From contig JBDHZC010000010.1 in NCBI GenBank assembly GCA_039811685.1, forward strand, positions 1 through 53,930: a stretch of 53,930 bases of DNA, read 5' to 3'. The translations under genes and the position numbers were made by a program. The stretch comes from Armatimonadota bacterium (GTDB taxonomy: Bacteria; Armatimonadota; UBA5829; DSUL01). Positions 1 through 8,044 of this stretch are shown piece after piece; within the stretch, counting starts at the first letter, position 1; every line of letters starts with the position of its first letter. Below the pieces are notes generated by a model that worked only from the letters and a program-made list of their open reading frames with translations, was not told the origin of the DNA and did not search any database.

Positions 1-62
1 ACGTGACCTATCGTTCCTATGTTTACATGAGGCTTCGTTCGCTCAAACTTCTGTTTCGCCAA
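1..62 (-). CDS. tuf: Elongation factor Tu, N-terminal fragment (runs off window)
   Basis: Reverse complement from TTG at 62 translates (M)[20 protein letters not shown], the canonical EF-Tu N-terminus; directly downstream of tRNA-Thr(GGT). Confidence 0.97.
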   Translation of the reverse strand, partial: [20 protein letters not shown]

Positions 63-222
63 CTTCGTGTCGCTCCTATGAGATCAATGTTTTCTGCTGC
101 TCACCGGCGACCATATTGCCCAGGCCCGGCGCCAACAACTGTCTACTTCAGAACATGGTAGTGCCGACGGGTTAACGCCGACTGAAGGCTCTGCCAGATG
201 TCAGAGCCAGCATAAGAAAACA

Positions 223-294
223 AGCCCACGACGGGAGTCGGACCCGTGACCTCCTCTTTACCAAAGAGGTGCGCTACCACTGCGCCACGTGGGC
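223..294 (-). tRNA. tRNA-Thr(GGT)
   Basis: Minus strand GCCCACGTGGCGCAGTGGTAGCGCACCTCTTTGGTAAAGAGGAGGTCACGGGTCCGACTCCCGTCGTGGGC folds as a cloverleaf with anticodon GGT; CCA not encoded. Confidence 0.93.
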
Positions 295-375
295 ATCACA
301 CCGTCTGACCCTTGAGGATTTTACCGGTGTGCCGGCTCCTTGCCGGATTACCGGCTGCCTCTGGACGACGGCGGA

Positions 376-461
376 TGGTGGGGGGAACAGGATTCGAACC
401 TGTGTAGGCGTTCGCCGGCAGATTTACAGTCTGCTCCCTTTGGCCGCTCGGGCATCCCCCC
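376..461 (-). tRNA. tRNA-Tyr(GTA)
   Basis: Minus strand GGGGGGATGCCCGAGCGGCCAAAGGGAGCAGACTGTAAATCTGCC...GGTTCGAATCCTGTTCCCCCCACCA; long variable arm, anticodon GTA, encoded CCA. Confidence 0.97.
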
Positions 462-552
462 GCGCAAAGCCAGATCGACAGGCGAGCGCAGTTTATTTAC
501 TAATCAGCTATCGCACCGCGAACTCGGCAACAAAAAGCACCCACCGGGCGAT

Positions 553-612
553 ATTCTACTCCACTACCGGAAGGCGCTGCAACAGTCTACCATCTTGCGC
601 GCGCGTGTGCAA
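553..612 (-). promoter_or_regulatory. Tandem sigma70-like promoters for tRNA-Tyr/tRNA-Thr/tuf
   Basis: Minus strand TTGCAG-N18-TAGAAT (582-553) and TTGCAC...TAGACT (612-585) upstream of tRNA-Tyr. Confidence 0.5.
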
Positions 613-871
613 GAGTATCCTCGATATTATGGGCAATCCCGCACTACTTGTGAAGAGCAGCCTCTCACAGAACAAGCCGTATTGAGCACGAACTCCAAAG
701 CAGGCGCCTCTCCTTTGTGACAAGAGCCGCAGGACTCCGAAATCAGCCGCCATACCTCGCCACCAAGCTAGGCGTGCTGAGGCCCCATTCAGCAAGGCGT
801 TGTCTGTTGCTAGTGGCTGCAACGATGCGCAAAGCTAGCGAACAATTGGTCAGAAATGTTCAGAAAACCTC

Positions 872-900
872 TTGACAGGGCGGAGGAGCAGGACTACGCT
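872..900 (+). promoter_or_regulatory. Sigma70-like promoter pointing into the repeat array
   Basis: TTGACA (872-877), 17-nt spacer, TACGCT (895-900). Confidence 0.6.
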
Positions 901-1043
901 AACAAAAATAGCTCATCGCCGTATTGGGCGCAGGCCCGGCAAAGCGCCTGGTGGACCGCAACCCAATGCCGCCACTACCGCTAGCCTTCGGAGGGGGTGC
1001 AGACAAAATACGATGAATAAAGTAATAGTGCGGCTCTTGAATA

Positions 1044-1123
1044 TTTCGGGATTTCCGGGTTGGAGCCCGGTCTTATCCGGGTTCTGCAAGTCTCAATGTC
1101 CAACCCTCAAATCCCGAAACACC
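1044..1123 (+). repeat. Type A palindromic unit, copy 1 (forward), followed by a 40-nt tandem duplication of its right arm to 1165
   Basis: TTTCGGGATTTCCGGGTTGGAGCC - 30 nt - GTCCAACCCTCAAATCCCGAAACACC. Confidence 0.92.
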
Positions 1124-1268
1124 GAATAAGTCTCAATGTCCAACCCTCAAATCCCGAAGCACCGAGATTTTACTGTCGCCACTGCGTCCGCTTGGTGAGC
1201 ATCTGTTGGACGCCGGTGGGTTTACCTGGGGCCTTGGCGCTCGGTGTAAACACCACCCTCGACTGTTT

Positions 1269-1348
1269 GGTATTTCGGGATTTGAGGGTTGGATGTGATC
1301 GCTCTCGGAGTAACGGGCAATCCTGGCTCCAACCTGGAAATCCCGAAA
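1269..1348 (-). repeat. Type A palindromic unit, copy 2 (reverse, unique core)
   Basis: GGTATTTCGGGATTTGAGGGTTGGAT - GTGATCGCTCTCGGAGTAACGGGCAATCCT (30 nt) - GGCTCCAACCTGGAAATCCCGAAA. Confidence 0.92.
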
Positions 1349-1362
1349 TGAGGGGCGTGCCG

Positions 1363-1398
1363 TTCAATGCCTCCAGGTTGGGAAACCTGGAGGGATGA
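1363..1398 (+). repeat. Type B hairpin repeat, copy 1
   Basis: TTCAATGCCTCCAGGTTGGGAAACCTGGAGGGATGA; 10-bp stem CCTCCAGGTT/AACCTGGAGG. Confidence 0.92.
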
Positions 1399-1438
1399 CA
1401 AAATACGATGAAAAAAGTAATAGTGCGGCTCTTGAATA

Positions 1439-1518
1439 TTTCGGGATTTCCGGGTTGGCGCCCGGTCTTATCCGGGTTCTGCAAGTCTCAATGTCCAACC
1501 CTCAAATCCCGAAACACC
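1439..1518 (+). repeat. Type A palindromic unit, copy 3 (forward), right arm duplicated to 1560
   Basis: Same 30-nt core as copy 1; one substitution in the left arm. Confidence 0.92.
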
Positions 1519-1560
1519 GAATAAGTCTCAATGTCCAACCCTCAAATCCCGAAGCACCGA

Positions 1561-1898
1561 GATTTTACTGTCGCCACTGCGTCCGCTTGGTGAGCATCTG
1601 TTGGACGCCGGTGGGTTTCCCTGGGGCCTTGGCGCTCGGTGTAAACACCACCCTCGACTGTCCCGCCAATGTCGGCGACTTCGCTAGGAACATGAGAGGT
1701 CTTGGGTGGTGGCTGAGTACGGTGATCGGTGGCGGGATAATCGTCGGAGGGCCCATCAATTTCCAACCGACGCCGATATTCGGCGTGTTGCCGGTACCTG
1801 GGCCGCCGAACTGGCTAGGAGGGCAGATTGGACTCAATATAGGTGCTGGTGCTTGCTGGGCGTTCGTTTTGGAGGAATTCGAAGGCGGCCCGATCTAG
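1561..1898 (+). pseudogene. 5'-truncated gene fragment, possibly the C-terminal tip of a polymorphic toxin
   Basis: Open frame ending ...GGGIIVGGPINFQ...GGQIGLNIGAGACWAFVLEEFEGGPI*, Gly/Cys-rich and hydrophobic. Its upstream part is repeat DNA, and it is followed 2 nt later by a small membrane gene and an Rhs fragment. The toxin call rests on context. Confidence 0.45.
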
Positions 1899-1900
1899 CT

Positions 1901-2416
1901 ATGGAACCGATAACACGCGGACAAGGCCGGGCCACGGAACAAGCTGCTTTTCCATTGACCTTGGACTATCGCGGGTGGATGGTGTACGTGGTCGCCACCC
2001 ATCCTTACCAAGGGGCGCTGTGGCTGACGCTCGTTACGGTTTTTGCATGGTCGGATGGCCAGCTTGCGTTGCGGGGGAAGATACTGCTGGCCTTGGCCTG
2101 TCTAGCACTACTGGTCTACAGCCGGCGGACGGCCCTGCGCCTGCCGACACGAATCGTGCTGTATGACGATTATTGCGAACTGTATCGCCTGCACGGTGCC
2201 CCCACGCTTGTCCATTTGGACAGCGTCTTACACGTGAGGCAGGCGCACGTGTTTATACTCCACCTGTCCATTGTCTGGACAATGGTCGAGTACTGCGGGG
2301 ACAGCGGCTACAACTGGTTCTTTGTACACAAGAGGCTGCCCGGCTACGCGAAGCTCATGGCGAGAATAGCAGCCTGCAGGCCGGCGCGGGAGCCTGCCGA
2401 TGGAGCTACGGCGTAG
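1901..2416 (+). CDS. Small membrane protein, candidate immunity protein
   Basis: ATG at 1901 just after the TAG at 1896-1898; two hydrophobic segments followed by a beta-rich soluble tail (171 aa). Confidence 0.6.
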   Translation: MEPITRGQGRATEQAAFPLTLDYRGWMVYVVATHPYQGALWLTLVTVFAWSDGQLALRGKILLALACLALLVYSRRTALRLPTRIVLYDDYCELYRLHGAPTLVHLDSVLHVRQAHVFILHLSIVWTMVEYCGDSGYNWFFVHKRLPGYAKLMARIAACRPAREPADGATA

Positions 2417-2679
2417 ACGGCCAACTAACGAAGCTGACGTGGCCGTCGTCCTCGTCGCCGCAGGTACAGGTGCAGTACATTTACACGAAGAACGGCCTGC
2501 GCAAGGAGAGCAAGCTGGGAGACATGGGCAGTGGGTACTACGTGACCAGCTACAGTTATGACACCCAGAACAGGCCCGGCGCAATCAGCCATGCCTATGG
2601 TACAAGCGGGAGTCGCTTTGCCGGCGTGATCTACGACACGCTGGATGAGCTGGGCAACCCGAAGGTGGTCTATGAGTCA
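2401..2679 (+). pseudogene. Rhs/YD-repeat core fragment
   Basis: WSYGVDGQLTKLTWP...QYIYTKNGLRKES...TSYSYDTQNRP...YDTLDELGNP: successive YD-type repeats; no start codon of its own and cut off by a type A unit at 2680. Confidence 0.8.
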
Positions 2680-2759
2680 GGTATTTCGGGATTTGAAGGT
2701 TGGACGTGAGAACCGCCGAATCGCTGGAGAGCTATGGCTCCAACCTGGAAATCCCGAAA
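2680..2759 (-). repeat. Type A palindromic unit, copy 4 (reverse, unique core)
   Basis: GGTATTTCGGGATTTGAAGGTTGGAC - GTGAGAACCGCCGAATCGCTGGAGAGCTAT (30 nt) - GGCTCCAACCTGGAAATCCCGAAA. Confidence 0.92.
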
Positions 2760-2816
2760 GGAGGGGGACGCCGTGAAGTGGAAGAGCATTGACACTGGCG
2801 CAGGCTGCTACTGCAT

Positions 2817-2852
2817 TTCAATGCCTCCAGGTTCGGAAACCTGGAGGGATGA
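2817..2852 (+). repeat. Type B hairpin repeat, copy 2
   Basis: TTCAATGCCTCCAGGTTCGGAAACCTGGAGGGATGA. Confidence 0.92.
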
Positions 2853-2982
2853 ATATCGCAATCGTTGTACAGATCCCTCGGGGGTCGACTGCTCACAGAT
2901 TCCTCGTGGAGGTGGCGAGCAATGAACCGCGTGTTCCTGATCGTCCTGTGGTCTTTGGCATCTGTCGTTGAGGGGCGTGCCG

Positions 2983-3018
2983 TTCAATGCCTCCAGGTTG
3001 GGATACCTGGAGGGATGA
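2983..3018 (+). repeat. Type B hairpin repeat, copy 3
   Basis: TTCAATGCCTCCAGGTTGGGATACCTGGAGGGATGA. Confidence 0.92.
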
Positions 3019-3057
3019 AAAAACACCATGAAAAAAGTACTAGTGCGGCTCTGAATG

Positions 3058-3137
3058 TTTCGGGATTTCCGGGTTGGAGCCCGGTCTTATCCGGGTTCTG
3101 CAAGTCTCAATGTCCAACCCTCAAATCCCGAAACACC
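3058..3137 (+). repeat. Type A palindromic unit, copy 5 (forward)
   Basis: Matches copy 1 including the core; no arm duplication. Confidence 0.92.
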
Positions 3138-3170
3138 GAAAACAATGTCCTCCTGCGTGGCTGAAAAGAT

Positions 3171-3386
3171 GTGTGGTCAATGCGCCTGTCACTGAGGCCG
3201 ACGGGGCCGCCTAGCCGCAGCCAGCGCTGGGCGGCCTGCATCAACTTGGCGCTCGGCATAGCGGGCTTGTGCATGGCCACCGCCGGGCCAGCGGCGTTCG
3301 GTGCAAAGGAATTTGCCGTGGCGGGGCTAGCTATTGCCGGCATTGTGAATGTGGCCATCGGCGTCTATGTGCTTCTGCGGCGCTAG
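3171..3386 (+). CDS. Small two-TM hypothetical protein, candidate immunity protein
   Basis: 71-aa ORF with two hydrophobic helices ending LLRR*; follows a short ORF tail ending TGA at 3164. Start may be ATG 3180. Confidence 0.5.
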   Translation: MWSMRLSLRPTGPPSRSQRWAACINLALGIAGLCMATAGPAAFGAKEFAVAGLAIAGIVNVAIGVYVLLRR

Positions 3387-3399
3387 GTGCAGCCTTATT

Positions 3400-3428
3400 C
3401 CATCCCTCCAGGTGTCCTCACCTGGAGG
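3400..3428 (-). repeat. Type B hairpin repeat, copy 4 (inverted, diverged)
   Basis: CATCCCTCCAGGTGTCCTCACCTGGAGG: reverse-oriented B with a changed loop and intact stem. Confidence 0.8.
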
Positions 3429-3451
3429 AGGCGACGGGGCATATTCAGGTA

Positions 3452-3487
3452 TTCAATGCCTCCGGGTTGGGAAACATGGAGGGATGA
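3452..3487 (+). repeat. Type B hairpin repeat, copy 5
   Basis: TTCAATGCCTCCGGGTTGGGAAACATGGAGGGATGA. Confidence 0.88.
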
Positions 3488-3559
3488 AAGCAGCCTCGCG
3501 AGCCGGAGCGTGGTTAAGAGTCTTTTGGTGGGAAAAGCGAGGGGCTGGGCGGTGGCATA

Positions 3560-3631
3560 AGCCGACGACAGGAATCGAACCCGCAACCGGCTGTTTACAA
3601 AACAGCTGCTCTACCATTGAGCTACGTCGGC
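3560..3631 (-). tRNA. tRNA-Thr(TGT)
   Basis: Minus strand GCCGACGTAGCTCAATGGTAGAGCAGCTGTTTTGTAAACAGCCGGTTGCGGGTTCGATTCCTGTCGTCGGC; anticodon loop TTTGTAA. Confidence 0.95.
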
Positions 3632-3809
3632 AAATCGTGCGTGTACTGCGCGTATTCCGGCCCCATTTTAGCGCAAATCCCGGCGTTTGCAAACAGGATC
3701 GCGAACAAAGGTTATCCGTCTGAATCCATCCGATTCGGACGCCTGTACGTACGGCTGGAGTTACTACTCTACGGGTAGGTGTTTGACAATAAGAGGAAAG
3801 AACGAGGCG

Positions 3810-5024
3810 CTAGCCGCCTGTATAGCCACTCTCGCGCAGGGTCTGGCTCACCAGAGACAGCGGTAGCTCGTTCTCCAGCATCATGGCGATGACCGTCATG
3901 AATGGGGCGATGTGCGTAAAAAAGGTTTTGTACCCGCTGCACAGATAGTTCAGGCCAGGTTCGCCGTACGGGCTAAGGGCGAAGCGGTGTTTCGGACAGC
4001 CTCCGTTACAGGCAAAAAGCACCGGGCACTCGCGGCAATACCCGGGCAGCGCGTCCTGCTTTTCCGCTCCAAACCTCTGTTGGAACGGGGACAAAGCCGG
4101 CCTGTGAACTCCCTGAGTGCGAATATTGCCGAGATAGTGACCACTCTCCAGATACTCTTCACACGAGAAGATATCACCGCCGGCCTGAACAGAAACGTTG
4201 GCCCCGCACGTTCCGGCGTGTACGCAGAAGCTGGAAGTGCATCCGCGGAAGCTCTCCATCGCGGCATCAAAATGCTGTACGTGAATGCGTCCGGCGTCGT
4301 GGCTCACCCACTCATCAAAAATCCTGGTAAGGAACTCACCAAAGCTCTCCGGATCTACGGACCACGGCGAAAGCCTGTCTTCATCGACGTGCTCGACGCA
4401 GGGTGAAAACTCTATAACGCGCACCCCTTCTTCGCGCAGGAAGCTGTACACTTCAAGAGGTGACCCTGAGTTGACGGAAGTGATAGAGCAGCGAACGCGG
4501 CACCGCGCACCGGTGCGCTGCAGGCGCTTCAGGGCCCTGTAGGCCGTGCTGAAGCTGACGCCTTTTCCGGTAAGCCGATGGAGATCATCGTGCAGGCGGG
4601 AGGGACCGTTCAGCTCAATGGCCACATCGAAATTGTGCTCTGCCAGAAACCGGCAGGTGTCAAGGTCCAGGCCTTGTCCGGAAGTCAGCAGGGTGTTTGC
4701 GCAGGTAACAGACTCCGGCGAATGCTCTTTCTGAAGCTCGACGACTCTCTGAAAAAAGCGCACGCCGGGGTTTGGGGACTCAGCGCACTGCCAGGTGAAG
4801 TTAGCCAGCGGCCCCGAATACGAACTCAGATAGTCACGCACTGTCTGTGCGAGCAGTTCATCTGACACGGCGGCGCGTTGAGAGTCGTGCGGCAGAACAC
4901 CATTTCCGCCGCGAAACGGATGGAAAACGAGATTGAACGTTCCTGGTTTTGACGGCTCAGGCGTCTGTGATTTGTCCAGATCCGCCTTTGACGCGCGACG
5001 CCGCTGCTCTCTCATGACAGTCAT
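3810..5024 (-). CDS. Anaerobic sulfatase maturase-like SPASM-domain protein lacking the CxxxCxxC motif
   Basis: anSME-like body (FGEFLTRIFDEW, CVHAGTCG, GDIFSC, CRECPVLFACNGGCPKHR, LNYLCSGYK); no radical SAM cysteine triad at the N-terminus. Confidence 0.85.
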   Translation of the reverse strand: MTVMREQRRRASKADLDKSQTPEPSKPGTFNLVFHPFRGGNGVLPHDSQRAAVSDELLAQTVRDYLSSYSGPLANFTWQCAESPNPGVRFFQRVVELQKEHSPESVTCANTLLTSGQGLDLDTCRFLAEHNFDVAIELNGPSRLHDDLHRLTGKGVSFSTAYRALKRLQRTGARCRVRCSITSVNSGSPLEVYSFLREEGVRVIEFSPCVEHVDEDRLSPWSVDPESFGEFLTRIFDEWVSHDAGRIHVQHFDAAMESFRGCTSSFCVHAGTCGANVSVQAGGDIFSCEEYLESGHYLGNIRTQGVHRPALSPFQQRFGAEKQDALPGYCRECPVLFACNGGCPKHRFALSPYGEPGLNYLCSGYKTFFTHIAPFMTVIAMMLENELPLSLVSQTLRESGYTGG

Positions 5025-5165
5025 TAGACGCTTCTAAAGAGGCGTTCACGCTCAGAAGTTTTGCGTTTCTGTGCAGGAGTTGAGACCCTGACCGCAGGAG
5101 GGTGATAAGATAGTTGTTGCGCGCGGGCAAGCCTCGCACGCCAGACAGTTTGGGAGGATTAATCA

Positions 5166-6491
5166 TTGCCTAAGATCACCATGATCGGCGCTGGCAGCGT
5201 CGTTTTTGCGCGCAATCTCACGCGCGACATTCTCTCCTTTGAAGAGCTGCGGGACTCTGAGATCGCTCTGATGGACATTGATGAGGAGCGCCTGCGCGTC
5301 GCAGAGCTGATGGTGAAGAAGGTCGGCGAAGCCGCAGGGGGACATCCGAAAGTCACTGCGACGACGGACAGGAAGAAAGCGCTCGAGGGCGCCGACTATG
5401 CCATCAACATGATCCAGGTCGGAACGTATCCATCCACGGTCACAGACTTTGAGATTCCCAAAAAATACGGCCTCAAGCAGACGATTGCCGATACGCTGGG
5501 AATCGGCGGTATCTTCCGGGCGCTGCGGACAATTCCCGTGATGCTGAGCATGGCGGATGATATGGAAGAAGTCTGCCCTGACGTGCAGTTCCTTAACTAT
5601 GTGAATCCGATGGCGATGAACACTGGCGCGTGGGAACACTACACGGACATCCCGATTGTGGGGCTTTGTCACAGCGTTCAGGGAACGGCGGATATGCTGG
5701 CTGGCGATATTGGCGTACCGTTCGCAGAGGTCAACTACATTTGCGCCGGCATCAACCACATGGCGTTCTACCTGCGCTTCGAGCGCAATGGCGAGGACCT
5801 CTACCCGCTCATTCACAAAGTCTACGAAGAAGGCCGGGCGCCCAACTGGAACCGCGTCCGCTATGAGATGCTGCACAGGCTGGGCTACTACGTAACGGAG
5901 TCCAGTGAGCACTTTTCCGAGTACTGCCCTTACTTCATCAAGAATACGCATCCCGAATTGATCGAGCGCTTCAACGTGCCCATTGACGAGTATATCCGGC
6001 GCTGCATCGCGCAGAACGAATCCTGGGAAAAGATGCGCGATGAGATGATGCAGGAGGATATCAAAATTGAGATGCACAGATCCAGTGAGTACGGCTCCCT
6101 GATCATACACTCGATGGAGACGGGCATCCCGCGCGTTATTTACGGCAACGTGCTCAACGACGGACTGATTGACAACCTGCCGTACGATTGCTGTGTTGAG
6201 GTTCCATGCCTGGTGGATAAGAACGGTGTGCAACCGACGCCGGTGGGCGCCCTTCCGCAGCAGCTCGCAGCGATCATCCGCACAAACGTAAACGTGCAGC
6301 TTCTTACGATTGAGGCCGCGCTGACTGGCAACCGGGACCACGTTTACCATGCGGCAATGATGGACCCCCACACATCAAGTGAGCTGACGCTGGATGAGAT
6401 ATGGAGCCTGGTTGACGATTTATTCGAGGCTCACGGCGACATTATCCCGCCGATGAAGACGCGGTTCAAAAAGGCCGTGGCGACTGCATAA
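5166..6491 (+). CDS. melA: NAD+-dependent alpha-galactosidase, glycoside hydrolase family 4
   Basis: KITMIGAGSVVF, QTIADTLGIGGIFRALRTIP, LNYVNPMAM, GLCHSVQGT, TESSEHFSEY; GGAGG before a TTG start. Confidence 0.92.
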   Translation: MPKITMIGAGSVVFARNLTRDILSFEELRDSEIALMDIDEERLRVAELMVKKVGEAAGGHPKVTATTDRKKALEGADYAINMIQVGTYPSTVTDFEIPKKYGLKQTIADTLGIGGIFRALRTIPVMLSMADDMEEVCPDVQFLNYVNPMAMNTGAWEHYTDIPIVGLCHSVQGTADMLAGDIGVPFAEVNYICAGINHMAFYLRFERNGEDLYPLIHKVYEEGRAPNWNRVRYEMLHRLGYYVTESSEHFSEYCPYFIKNTHPELIERFNVPIDEYIRRCIAQNESWEKMRDEMMQEDIKIEMHRSSEYGSLIIHSMETGIPRVIYGNVLNDGLIDNLPYDCCVEVPCLVDKNGVQPTPVGALPQQLAAIIRTNVNVQLLTIEAALTGNRDHVYHAAMMDPHTSSELTLDEIWSLVDDLFEAHGDIIPPMKTRFKKAVATA

Positions 6492-6561
6492 AGTCTGCTG
6501 ACCGGGAGCATGAGGTGCGCCGCGCTTTTGCGCGGCGCATTCCGGAGAACAGAACCTTCTT

Positions 6562-7182
6562 ATGTCCGACCCACCATGGCTCGATTGGGCCAAGAGAATC
6601 CAGGCGATTGGCCAGACCGGCCTTTATTACGCCAAGGACCCGTACGACCGCGAGCGCTACGAGCAGATACGCGAGATTGCAGCGGAGATGGTGGCGTACG
6701 GCGCTGAAGCGGACGTGCAGCATGTCCGGGATATCTTCTGTGCAGAGACGGGCTACGCGACTCCCAAAGTAGATGTCCGGGGTGTTGTCTTTCAAGAAGA
6801 CAGTGTGCTGCTGGTTCTGGAAGCGCTCGACGGTAAGTGGACTCTTCCAGGCGGCTGGGCAGACGTCAAACTCAGCCCATCTGAAAACGCTGTGAAGGAA
6901 GTGTTCGAAGAGTCCGGCTACGAAGTGCGGGCGGAGCGCCTGCTGGCGGTCTATGACAGAGACAAACACCCCCACCCGCCCGGGCCTTTTCACATCTACA
7001 AGATGTTTGTGGAGTGCCGTATCGTCGGCGGTGAGCCACGCCCGAGCAACGAGACGCTGGATGTGCGCTTCTTTCCCGTGGACGACCTTCCGGAGCTCTC
7101 TATCAGCCGTGTAACTGAAGAGGAGATCGGGCGGCTGCACACGCTGGTATCAAATGGGGAGATGCGAGCTGATCTGGACTGA
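6562..7182 (+). CDS. Nudix hydrolase with N-terminal helical domain (YjhB/ADP-ribose pyrophosphatase-like)
   Basis: AIGQTGLYY...DPYDRERY, GYATPKVDVRG, Nudix box GGWADVKLSPSENAVKEVFEESG. Confidence 0.9.
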   Translation: MSDPPWLDWAKRIQAIGQTGLYYAKDPYDRERYEQIREIAAEMVAYGAEADVQHVRDIFCAETGYATPKVDVRGVVFQEDSVLLVLEALDGKWTLPGGWADVKLSPSENAVKEVFEESGYEVRAERLLAVYDRDKHPHPPGPFHIYKMFVECRIVGGEPRPSNETLDVRFFPVDDLPELSISRVTEEEIGRLHTLVSNGEMRADLD

Positions 7183-7273
7183 CGCTCTCGCGGAGCTTGT
7201 GCTATGCTGAAACTTAGCCGTAGCGACGCAGTGGTCAGCGTTGGTAACGACTGTTATCAGGGGAGAGACAAAT

Positions 7274-8044
7274 ATGCTCACAGCAGAACAACTGGATTTT
7301 TACCGCGAGAACGGCTATGTCCTCGTAGCAGGACTTCTGACACCGGACGAAGCGGCTTTTTACCGCACAGAGTGTCACGACCTCGCGGAGCGTTTGAGTA
7401 AGAAGCACAACATTGACGCAACGTGGGGTTCCGCGAGAGCGGCGGTGAAGGGAGCAGAGCAGACTGTGATTCAGCACTGTCACGACGTGCAGTTCCAGTC
7501 GGCCGCTTTCAGCAAGCTGCTGGTGGATGACCGTCTGACCGGCCCGGCTTCGGATGTGATCGGGTCACCAAATGTGCAGCTTCACCACACGAAGATGTTC
7601 ATCAAGCCGCCTGAGAAGGGCTCTCCCTTCCCTATGCACCAGGATCACCCGTATTTCCCCCATGAGCGTCACTCGATGATGGCTGCGATCTTTCATTTTG
7701 ATGACGCTCCGCTTGAGCGCGGGTGTGTGTGCGTTGTCCCAGGCAGTCACAAACTGGGCCCGCTGGAGCATTCGTCCGACGGCGGGTGGCATCTGCCCTT
7801 TGACAAGTATCCTCTTGAGGCGGCGGTGGCTTGTCCGGCGAAAGCGGGGGATGTGCTGTTTTTCAGCTATCTGACAATTCATGGCTCTGGAGTTAACGTG
7901 TCTGACAAGCCCCGGACGACGTTGCTCGTTCAGATGCGCGATCCCACAGACCCGATGACCGTCAAGACGCATCTGTCCCGCGGGCAGGGCATGATGCTGC
8001 GCGGGATCGATCCGCTGGCTAGCACAGCGCCAATGGGAGCTTAG
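7274..8044 (+). CDS. Phytanoyl-CoA dioxygenase (PhyH) family Fe(II)/2OG oxygenase
   Basis: MLTAEQLDFYRENGY, HQD, VVPGSH, AGDVLFF...IHGS..N...R. Confidence 0.9.
   Translation: MLTAEQLDFYRENGYVLVAGLLTPDEAAFYRTECHDLAERLSKKHNIDATWGSARAAVKGAEQTVIQHCHDVQFQSAAFSKLLVDDRLTGPASDVIGSPNVQLHHTKMFIKPPEKGSPFPMHQDHPYFPHERHSMMAAIFHFDDAPLERGCVCVVPGSHKLGPLEHSSDGGWHLPFDKYPLEAAVACPAKAGDVLFFSYLTIHGSGVNVSDKPRTTLLVQMRDPTDPMTVKTHLSRGQGMMLRGIDPLASTAPMGA

Follow-up and report, generated by a model that had tools for sequence, protein, structure and literature searches.

The closest described relatives of the hairpin studied here, called B, are the REP/REPIN elements with their RAYT genes, which to our knowledge have been studied almost solely in Proteobacteria, and the IS200/IS605 insertion sequences, whose HUH/Y1 enzymes act on subterminal hairpins in single-stranded DNA. 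IS200/IS605 elements insert without target duplication (see also PMC6006769). According to the accessible text of Di Nocera et al. 2013 (PMC3733652), most REPs carry a GTAG or CGTC tag, and RAYT-like genes have REPs at their flanks in some cases and longer inverted repeats in others (the TIRYT/TIRtron arrangement); Armatimonadota are not mentioned in that text. The window, which is the whole 53,930-nt stretch of DNA analyzed, comes from the metagenome-assembled genome of an uncultured member of this phylum (3.42 Mb, 97% complete, 15 contigs, several of them ending in the repeats described below). Here it is proposed that B is probably a REP-type element, its hairpin family being the cognate flanking repeat of one RAYT clade ("epsilon") of the HUH/Y1 superfamily. 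The observations that carry this proposal are the anatomy of the hairpin, the spread of its family among genomes, the position of such hairpins beside epsilon RAYT genes in four other genomes, the gain or loss of B-like blocks at orthologous sites of a related genus and the lack of target duplications.

B is polar and folds as single-stranded DNA into a unit of 36-40 nt, with a 5' tail (TTTC)ATC, a 10-bp stem CCTCCAGGTN and a 4-nt pyrimidine loop TCCN, a loop reading that holds with the tail placed 5'. Among 43 distinct B-type copies from the loci analyzed, A6 and C8 of the tail never vary and T7 is present in at least 90%; the unconstrained apical pair covaries (A-U 17, U-A 17, G-C 3, U-G 1, other 5), with a covariation score reached by none of 500 shuffles, and the stem sequence is conserved between bacterial families. 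Four of the five window copies have fold energies between -9.8 and -12 kcal/mol (z between -4.3 and -5.3), and an extra 4-bp outer stem is present in three of the four close copies, the one at 1363-1398 being without it. As in E. coli REP with its TnpA-REP (PDB 4ER8) and in the REPINs of Pseudomonas fluorescens, the unit is an imperfect palindrome of small size that bears a conserved tag on one foot only, a design of one-end tag plus stem-loop also seen in the GTAG and CGTC superfamilies as described in the accessible text of PMC3733652; however, the one-sided tag of B is (C/T)ATC, and neither GTAG nor CGTC was found at either foot. The B system also shares the HUH/Y1 family and the lack of target duplication with IS200/IS605 elements and their miniature derivatives (PATEs), but B is a single hairpin of 36-40 nt instead of distinct left and right ends, no common target motif or conserved target tetranucleotide was found adjoining it in the window's genome, and one of the RAYT-like genes of this genome, R1, is only a weak match to the IS200 models.

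The window has four near-identical copies of B, defined as 36-mer matches with at most three mismatches (0 expected from 100 shuffles), and one diverged inverted copy, for a chance expectation of 0; the exact stem pattern occurs twice within the window. A first-pass annotation had listed five copies, and while the hairpin is real and four of them are close, the fifth (3398-3428) is only 74% identical, inverted and with another loop. Copy 1 (1363-1398, minus strand, no mismatch, -10.7 kcal/mol, z -4.3) reads on its tagged minus strand TTGTCATC-stem-loop-stem-CATTGAAC, with a RAYT leader remnant (1349-1362) on one side and a 40-nt spacer followed by a hairpin of type A2 on the other. Copy 2 (2817-2852, minus strand, one mismatch) adjoins a RAYT 5' remnant. 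Copy 3 (2983-3018, minus strand, one mismatch) is a segmental duplicate of copy 1 with both flanks in common, the block 1349-1432 being duplicated at 2969-3052; because they lie within one duplicated block, copies 1 and 3 are not independent insertions. As proposed earlier, B does behave as a discrete short hairpin unit that lacks target duplication. Copy 4 (3452-3487, minus strand) has two mismatches, both in the stem (CCGGG...ACATGG), and folds more weakly (-5.1 kcal/mol, z -2.3); an identical variant is found at C3:187375, with unrelated flanks on both sides. Copy 5 (3398-3431, plus strand, -11.9 kcal/mol) has the loop variant GTGTCCTCAC, which is also present at C3:184462 and in other genomes, and lies inverted to copy 4, the two forming a 93-nt doublet (3398-3490) with the tails pointing outward. 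The occurrence of B as singlets and as inverted doublets of this orientation, including seven 92-nt doublets at C5:72-81 kb, is a further likeness to REP/REPIN-RAYT systems.

The first 3.5 kb of the window form one locus of accumulated A, B and C hairpins and RAYT gene remnants. It includes A1 hairpins at 1273-1348 (plus strand, 76 nt), followed by the RAYT leader TGAGGGGCGTGCCGT (1349-1363), and at 2684-2759 (plus strand), preceding the RAYT 5' remnant, as well as an A2 hairpin at 1044-1119 (minus strand) with more copies at 1439-1514 and 3058-3133. A tRNA gene at 3560-3631 (minus strand) bounds the repeat-rich stretch; with those at 223-294 and 379-461 it gave the only Rfam matches in positions 1-8000 (RF00005; 70.8, 68.6 and 57.3 bits), no family matching B. 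Two 265-nt copies, 1002-1266 and 1397-1661, make up a plus-strand duplication spanning 1002-1661; they are 99% identical and are parted by A1, the leader and B. The site at 991-1015, previously taken for an empty allele, is not a clean one: the duplication starts at the right edge of B, the 13 nt leftward resemble the left flank of B, and MAFFT aligns 964-1001 (plus strand) as a degenerate B (CAATGCC.CCA ... GGAGGG), so this stretch is ambiguous and may be either a B-less junction or a decayed copy. The organism occurs in sludge populations, 15 runs containing at least half of the sampled sequence words. When contigs of four public runs were placed on 600-4200, they were fragments ending at repeats, none of which bridged a B site lacking B; two joints were repeat-to-repeat joins, from one run.

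The RAYT 5' remnant beside copy 2 belongs to the clade called alpha (2773-2816, plus strand; V-KWKSIDTGAGCYC) and is broken off at about codon 15 from its GTG start. In the stop-to-stop frame, tblastn gives 76% identity to the intact gene R2 over 37 residues (2710-2820), cut at residue 37, and the remnant is also defined by the alignment of five such units. Homology to R2 and to the paralogous remnants ends exactly at the tagged end of copy 2, and none of the three frames after B (from 2853) has convincing similarity to R2 residues 38-70; as the sequence past B does not continue the RAYT gene, copy 2 is not a simple insertion. Four independent alpha-RAYT remnants stop at one point (...GGCTGCTACTRCAT), where three of them meet B and the fourth an A1 unit. 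B does lie inside the ORF at 2734-2925, as had been noted, but this supposed Cys-rich reading frame is the RAYT 5' remnant and not an independent gene, and none of the 44 ORFs scanned was a Pfam-supported ORF containing B.

The window's genome has two intact RAYT-like genes, R1 and R2, inside B-rich loci, together with many 5' and 3' remnants, a multiplicity that is IS-like, whereas RAYTs are usually described as single-copy (PMC5581495, accessible text). The RAYT-specific NCBIfam model NF047646 (146 positions; cut-off 80 bits) matches R1 over positions 1-146 (E 1.9e-21, 77.5 bits) and R2 over positions 8-146 (7.4e-21, 75.6 bits), and RAYTs of relatives score up to 113.9 bits. A whole-genome search with Pfam Y1_Tnp gave no match, a zero that is misleading because the RAYT-specific model picks up the two genes, and on R1 the Pfam model reached only 20.2 bits against a 23-bit cut-off; with the IS200 model NF033573, R1 reaches 18.1 bits (cut-off 55). 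The best solved relative of R2 is the E. coli TnpA-REP (4ER8), in an alignment spanning the HUH and Tyr motifs ("vimpthvhll" to "vvlpehmhci" and "nyihanpvrrglv" to "dyiyinpvkhgwv"), and R1 has the corresponding IMPEHIHVL and YMHNNPVKRGL; the tyrosine of the second motif is presumably the catalytic residue.

R2 is flanked by the A hairpins (76 nt) and R1 by the C hairpins (58 nt), which resembles the longer-inverted-repeat TIRYT/TIRtron arrangement in the accessible text of PMC3733652; B differs from the superfamilies described there in having neither tag. The A1 type lies upstream of RAYT, directly before intact R2, and the A2 type downstream. Six of the eight A1 units are preceded by TCA, unlike B with its lack of a target motif. 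A flanks its RAYT clade in the three genomic members examined (3/3) and in 7 of 11 metagenome loci, and a B-like hairpin was found in none of those 11 loci. The 10-mer TCCAGGTTGG is indeed common to B and the A arm; however, the suggestion that one enzyme acts on both A and B is not supported, since the RAYT clade that A consistently flanks is a different one. The A hairpins were also considered as integron attC sites. In attC, the outermost boxes are RYYYAAC (5' end) and GTTRRRY (3' end); A does have GTTGGAY and RTCCAAC boxes, but these are inner and in reverse order, and this identification was rejected.

Hairpins with the CCAGGT...ACCTGG core directly flank the epsilon RAYT clade in four other genomes. 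The gene of G035:C219 is preceded by two B-like hairpins, at distances of 67 and 199 nt, and its contig breaks off in CTCCTCCAGG, 26 nt past the stop; in G046:C26, where the RAYT is 55% identical, inverted hairpins are found on both sides within about 100 nt, with the tail GGAGGGATGA as in B; G032:C178 has a RAYT fragment with two hairpins; and G004:C3, from the same bacterial family as the window, has one upstream hairpin and five downstream ones, their core being CCAGGTG...CACCTGG. The inverted hairpins around a RAYT gene that define a REPtron, as in REP/REPIN-RAYT systems, were found in all four of these relatives and not in the window's genome. The earlier attribution to HUH enzymes of the RAYT type thus points to the right family, given R1 and R2 in B-rich loci and the epsilon RAYTs flanked by B-core hairpins, but the HUH gene flanked by B whose search had been proposed was found, with B-like hairpins, in other genomes only: no epsilon RAYT was found in the window's genome, where tblastn gives just R1 (34% identity) and R2 (25%), so that the cognate RAYT is missing from this assembly, as it is not in REP/REPIN-RAYT systems. 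In favor of the pairing, a B-like hairpin lies within 350 nt of just 2 of 24 other RAYT loci in B-holding genomes. Against it, none of the eight other RAYT loci of G032, a genome with 82 copies, has such a hairpin within 1.5 kb, and in G008, G050 and G010 (57, 15 and 10 B-like copies) the best match to the epsilon RAYT is just 30-35% identical.

Of 53 genomes of the class, nine contain the B stem pattern (82, 75, 57, 21, 15, 13, 10, 2 and 1 copies; control pattern 0), and in eight genomes a shorter core pattern clearly exceeds its control. With the strict pattern, B is present in 2 of 41 genomes against RAYT in 25 of 41, so that for the RAYT family as a whole the two show no useful correlation. 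The exact 24-nt stem of the window's genome had no match in the metagenome scan. This patchy presence among related genomes and the insertion without target duplication are again REP-like. In the related genus g6, B-like blocks have been gained or lost at orthologous intergenic sites: blocks of 97-185 nt containing a B-like hairpin are missing from one to three congeners at each of the three loci tested. Each block combines a B-like hairpin with a second hairpin variant and a further short repeat, a mosaic make-up in which they resemble BIMEs, although their composition is unrelated to the enterobacterial units. Filled and empty sites, whose search had been proposed, are clean in g6, while no clean single-hairpin pair was obtained for the window's own genome. 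No target duplication is clear at the three g6 filled sites, one possible ATT being unconfirmed at 86% identity, and no direct repeats were found at the edges of any of the 21 B copies of the window's genome, which bears out the earlier observation and distinguishes B from MITEs and other IS-derived miniature elements.

Those 21 copies are grouped in about six loci, fewer and more clustered than REPs spread through extragenic space; 18 of them have an A or C hairpin no more than 1.5 kb away (placed at random: mean 0.25, maximum 3, in 2000 trials). Such clustering with other repeats would also be expected if B were not itself mobile here but a passive passenger, spread by segmental duplication and by homologous or illegitimate recombination in repeat-rich "scrapyard" loci. 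This explanation is unlikely, yet several copies do share a flank with another copy and as segmental duplicates count against mobility: those at 1363 and 2983 have both flanks in common, those at 2824 and C11:886 share 110 nt on one side, with C3:183762 arranged alike, and those at C3:185750 and C11:46639 have one common flank; the cognate RAYT is also not found in the genome. What it does not explain is that the tail-side (5') context is unique in 20 of the 21 copies (ungapped comparison), that homology between the paralogous units stops exactly at the tagged end, that the copy 4 variant recurs unchanged at a second locus where neither flank is related, and that relatives with 57-82 copies have them dispersed over many contigs, with presence differences at orthologous sites. 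It is improbable, too, that B is mainly a landing pad for other elements, such as A-flanked RAYT units or the IS110 family, instead of a transposase substrate. Insertion of IS elements into REPs has precedent in the accessible text of PMC8450116, an A1 unit abuts half a B at C11:281-301 (the junction of ...CCTCCAGGTCA with GGTA), an IS110-family gene (C11:48238-49494) lies between a complete and a partial B that are inverted to each other, and at four non-epsilon RAYT loci (R1, R2, G035:C35 and G008:C60) B-like hairpins stand immediately beyond the cognate ones. However, this IS110 copy is inside a C-type hairpin and not B, most B copies are without an inserted element, and neither the multiplication of B nor its two-sided flanking of epsilon RAYT genes would be explained.

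Roles in mRNA 3'-end stabilization, protein binding or translation have been credited to REPs (PMC3733652, PMC3479197), and the covariation of the apical pair, the conservation of the stem across bacterial families, the GGAGG that the right arm carries beside ATG and the isolated copy C1:311143 between the convergent genes GH116 and Usp could indicate a functional hairpin kept by selection. We consider this doubtful in the extreme, since GGAGG is 1 nt from ATG, too near for a ribosome-binding site, most copies sit among gene remnants away from intact genes, Rfam gave no matching family and the stem is not followed by a run of T on either strand, which also rules out a canonical intrinsic terminator. 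The first-pass annotation had noticed a likeness to CRISPR repeats; to the CRISPR repeat of this genome it is restricted to the tips, with TTTCAAT... at one end and ...GATG.AA at the other, and it is barely conceivable that B is a solitary or degenerate CRISPR repeat: the real arrays of this genome (C2 near 637 kb and C13 near 11 kb) use an unrelated 37-nt repeat, GTTTCAATCCACACCGCCCCCGAAGGGGCGATGCAAC, with a different stem, B is never regularly spaced at 60-80 nt, and the CATTGAA end is particular to the window's genome, being missing from the B-like copies of other genomes.

For B as a REP-type element, a mechanism can be proposed by analogy, in which the RAYT would cleave the hairpin, folded from single-stranded DNA, at its tagged foot and rejoin it elsewhere, giving new copies. 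A cut at this foot would account for tail-side DNA that differs in nearly every copy and for the other side being sometimes co-carried. With no epsilon RAYT assembled, the 21 copies would be either an orphan, decaying population or one moved in trans, and they have accumulated, along with hairpins of types A and C and broken RAYT genes, at a small number of loci that tolerate them. There is a slim chance that B moves without its own RAYT through a non-cognate one, and that B or its enzyme preferentially breaks rival RAYT genes at one site; if true, the broken genes would be a case of interference between competing REP-RAYT systems in one genome.

B is probably a further instance of a type of mobile DNA already described. 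In Armatimonadota, each of the hairpin families A, B and C is paired with its own RAYT clade, and these pairings are conserved across families of the phylum, and one hairpin family persists without its enzyme in the assembly. The repeat system explains where the contigs of this genome break, and the small Cys-rich ORF is a product of it and not a gene. The locus offers a test case for the specificity of RAYT-hairpin recognition, for the fate of a REP population after the loss of its transposase and for competition between REP systems.

The genome containing the window has 3.42 Mb in 15 contigs with ~58% G+C, and the window covers contig C10 from its start to 53.9 kb; the public runs containing this organism are sludge and wastewater metagenomes. 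The 36-nt hairpin B was found four times in the window with two mismatches or fewer, at 1363, 2817, 2983 and 3452 (none expected from 100 shuffles), and its exact stem CCTCCAGGTT...AACCTGGAGG occurs twice. A fifth copy, at 3398-3428, has a different loop and the reverse orientation. In single-stranded DNA every copy folds to a stem of 10 bp capped by a 4-nt loop, and three of the four close copies have an outer 4-bp stem beyond a small internal loop. The copies at 1363 and 2983 belong to a single duplicated block. The repeat-rich stretch 1-3631, with which the contig opens, is bracketed by two tRNA genes at 223-294 and 379-461 and a third at 3560-3631. It includes a YD-repeat-like ORF fragment (2173-2709; ...YSYDTQNRPG...YDTLDELGNPKVVYES), truncated by an A1 hairpin at 2684, for which Pfam gave no family, as well as two small upstream ORFs (1395-1898 and 1901-2416) with no Pfam match. 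Contigs C9, C10 and C11 each terminate in A or B repeats, so these repeats break the assembly.

The genome has 21 copies of B, 20 from a 28-nt pattern with three mismatches or fewer and one with a 7-nt loop: five on C10 (1.3-3.5 kb), six on C3 (182.9-187.4 kb), five on C11 (0.9 kb and 44.5-48.1 kb), three on C5 (4.6 kb and 23.5-24.8 kb) and two on C1 (82.4 kb and 311.1 kb). These loci also hold hairpins of two further families, A (76 nt, arms TTTCGGGATTT/AAATCCCGAAA) and C (58 nt, arms CTGCGGGAAT/ATTCCCGCAG). An A or C hairpin lies within 1.5 kb of 18 of the 21 copies (random placement: mean 0.25, maximum 3 in 2000 trials), a figure that is a description and not a test, since the B copies are mutually non-independent. 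Also, C5:72019-80710 carries seven repeats of ~92 nt at gene junctions, which are doublets of B-type hairpins in which TTCATC-CGCGCAGGTGTCCTCACCTGCGC and CTCCAGGTGGGGACACCTGGAG-AGATG are separated by 31 nt and the tails, the conserved (TTTC)ATC at the 5' side of the stem, point outward. The doublets probably correspond to the 'E' element noted earlier in this genome, and E would then belong to the B family as a REPIN-like unit instead of being private.

Pfam Y1_Tnp gave no match in the whole-genome search. The NCBIfam model for the REP-associated tyrosine transposase (RAYT, an HUH enzyme) found two genes, R1 (C3:184680-185144) and R2 (C5:24136-24582), both scoring slightly below the cut-off (R1 reaches 76.5 bits, E 1.9e-21, against a cut-off of 80). 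On reading of the locus, R1 carries IMPEHIHVL and YMHNNPVKRGL, and it has a weak score of 20.2 bits against Y1_Tnp. The closest solved relative of R2 is the E. coli TnpA-REP (4ER8, E 7e-5), in an alignment spanning the HUH and tyrosine motifs. C hairpins stand on either side of R1 and A hairpins on either side of R2 (A1 upstream, A2 downstream), with B copies immediately outside them at C3:184462 (R1) and at C5:23560 and 24754 (R2). R1 is part of a 4.5-kb island (C3:182918-187398) having a B copy in direct orientation at each boundary, both followed by a similar stretch of ~40 nt (...gggcaggaggtgagg.cg.gtggctg...) that resembles a duplicated junction. On C11:48037-49594, a transposase gene of the IS110 family (Pfam DEDD_Tnp_IS110, 1e-35; Transposase_20) lies within a C-type hairpin, with a full B on one side and a partial inverted B on the other; pieces of this element (276-278 nt) were found at C5:23685-23961, within the R2 locus, and C1:213576-213851. 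The A1 units (window 2684 and 1273; C3:183622; C5:23603 and 24620; C11:67, 207 and 973) start at GGTA, and the TCA preceding six of the eight is a possible target or cleavage motif of the alpha-clade RAYT.

The Cys-rich ORF at 2734-2925, where the first-pass annotation saw B lying in frame, is a RAYT 5' remnant and not an independent gene, as indicated by R2 homology and a common remnant end point at B. By tblastn, R2 matches window 2710-2820 (76% identity over 37 residues); other 5' pieces of this kind are on C3 and C11, and C5 and C9 carry 3' pieces. When five units are aligned, they share a start, GGTATTTCGGG in the A1 hairpin, followed by a leader and the first RAYT codons (V/L-KWK.ID.GAGCY). 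All four RAYT remnants stop at ...GGCTGCTACTRCAT, where three join B and one joins another A1 unit; past this point, the intact R2 reads ...ATCACCGGCACC. The DNA past B differs from copy to copy, B being the breakpoint of the RAYT remnant, and a 265-nt duplication starts at the B edge. The proposed empty allele at 991-1015 proved ambiguous, as 990-1001 is similar to the RAYT leader found before B at 1349-1362, whereas MAFFT aligned 964-1001 to B itself.

Outside this genome, the strict B pattern was present in two of 41 relatives' genomes, and the stem with a free loop in nine of 53 genomes of the class (82, 75, 57, 21, 15, 13, 10, 2 and 1 copies, the 13 being in the window's genome; control pattern, 0). 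A scan of public collections gave 17 loci from five MAGs; two of these MAGs, labelled Armatimonadota or uncultured bacterium, have many loci. The collected loci yielded 43 distinct B-type copies, oriented by the ATC beside the stem, with the consensus (Y)ATC-CCTCCAGGT-N-TCCN-N-ACCTGGAGG. The search pattern fixed the stem sequence and left the apical pair free, and this pair covaries (A-U 17, U-A 17, G-C 3, U-G 1, other 5). In the window's genome, the other foot of B is frequently CATTGAAA, a feature specific to this genome that lengthens the palindrome. B is not a CRISPR repeat, a comparison that the first-pass annotation had proposed: the genome's real arrays (C2:636984-637400 and C13:11017-11350) share a 37-nt repeat, GTTTCAATCCACACCGCCCCCGAAGGGGCGATGCAAC, with a different stem, and regular spacing of B copies was never seen. 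The first seven and last few bases of that repeat are similar to the B tips in the window's genome.

For three B-like loci of G008, a genome of a related genus, the orthologous intergenic site of congeners lacks a block of ~143, 97 or 185 nt (L004 vs G010, G051 and G052; L002 vs G010 and G050; L010 vs G051). No target duplication was evident at these three loci, a possible ATT at L002 being unconfirmable at 86% identity. Besides the B-like hairpin, each block holds a second hairpin variant plus a further short repeat. Among the B copies of the window's genome, ungapped comparison found shared flanks for one pair on the tail side and three pairs on the other side, and an identical two-mismatch variant occurs at window 3459 and C3:187375 amid unrelated flanks. 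These patterns fit a reaction in which a RAYT would cut and join B at its tagged foot. The E. coli RAYT recognises REP DNA in its single-stranded form and cuts at the tag, according to a passage of PMC3733652 citing earlier work.

RAYT genes are present in 25 of 41 relatives. A 35-row tree, built without fragments from every RAYT locus of the B-holding genomes and, for the other genomes, from their top hits only, recovered an alpha clade (R2, G035:C35 and G032:C169; support 100/98), a gamma clade (R1 and G035:C100; 97/97) and an epsilon clade (G035:C219 and G004:C3; 98/92). A-type hairpins are on both sides of all three alpha genes, and C-type hairpins on both sides of both gamma genes. Among 11 metagenome loci coding alpha relatives (contigs of 1-2.9 kb, two near-identical), seven have complete A-like hairpins and none a B-like one. 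The epsilon gene of G035:C219 has two B-type hairpins 67 and 199 nt upstream, and its contig ends within an apparent further copy. In G004:C3, from the same bacterial family as the window, there is one B-type hairpin upstream and five in tandem downstream, with the core CCAGGTGAGGACACCTGG identical to the window variant at 3408-3425 and a different lower stem. G046:C26 (55% identical) has inverted B-type copies on both sides, tails outward, ending GGAGGGATGA like those of the window, and the RAYT fragment of G032:C178 has two B-type hairpins. A B-like hairpin lies no more than 350 nt away at two of 24 non-epsilon RAYT loci in B-holding genomes; R1 and R2 also have one nearby. No epsilon RAYT gene was found by tblastn in the window's genome, and the best matches in G008, G050 and G010 have 30-35% identity. 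The earlier suggestion of an HUH enzyme of the RAYT type therefore stands in outline, given R1 and R2 and the B-type hairpins flanking epsilon genes in relatives, while the proposal that A and B share one enzyme does not, since A flanks alpha genes and B-type hairpins flank epsilon genes.

In PMC3733652, REPs are described as palindromes of 20-40 nt, mostly with a GTAG or CGTC tag, and RAYT genes as having either REPs or longer inverted repeats on their flanks; RAYTs are described as typically single-copy (PMC5581495). The name Armatimonadetes is absent from both texts. Full-text literature searches gave no paper combining Armatimonad* with "repetitive extragenic palindromic" and, for Armatimonad* with "RAYT", none whose title or abstract deals with this topic. 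B is best explained as a REP-type hairpin whose family is tied to one RAYT clade.
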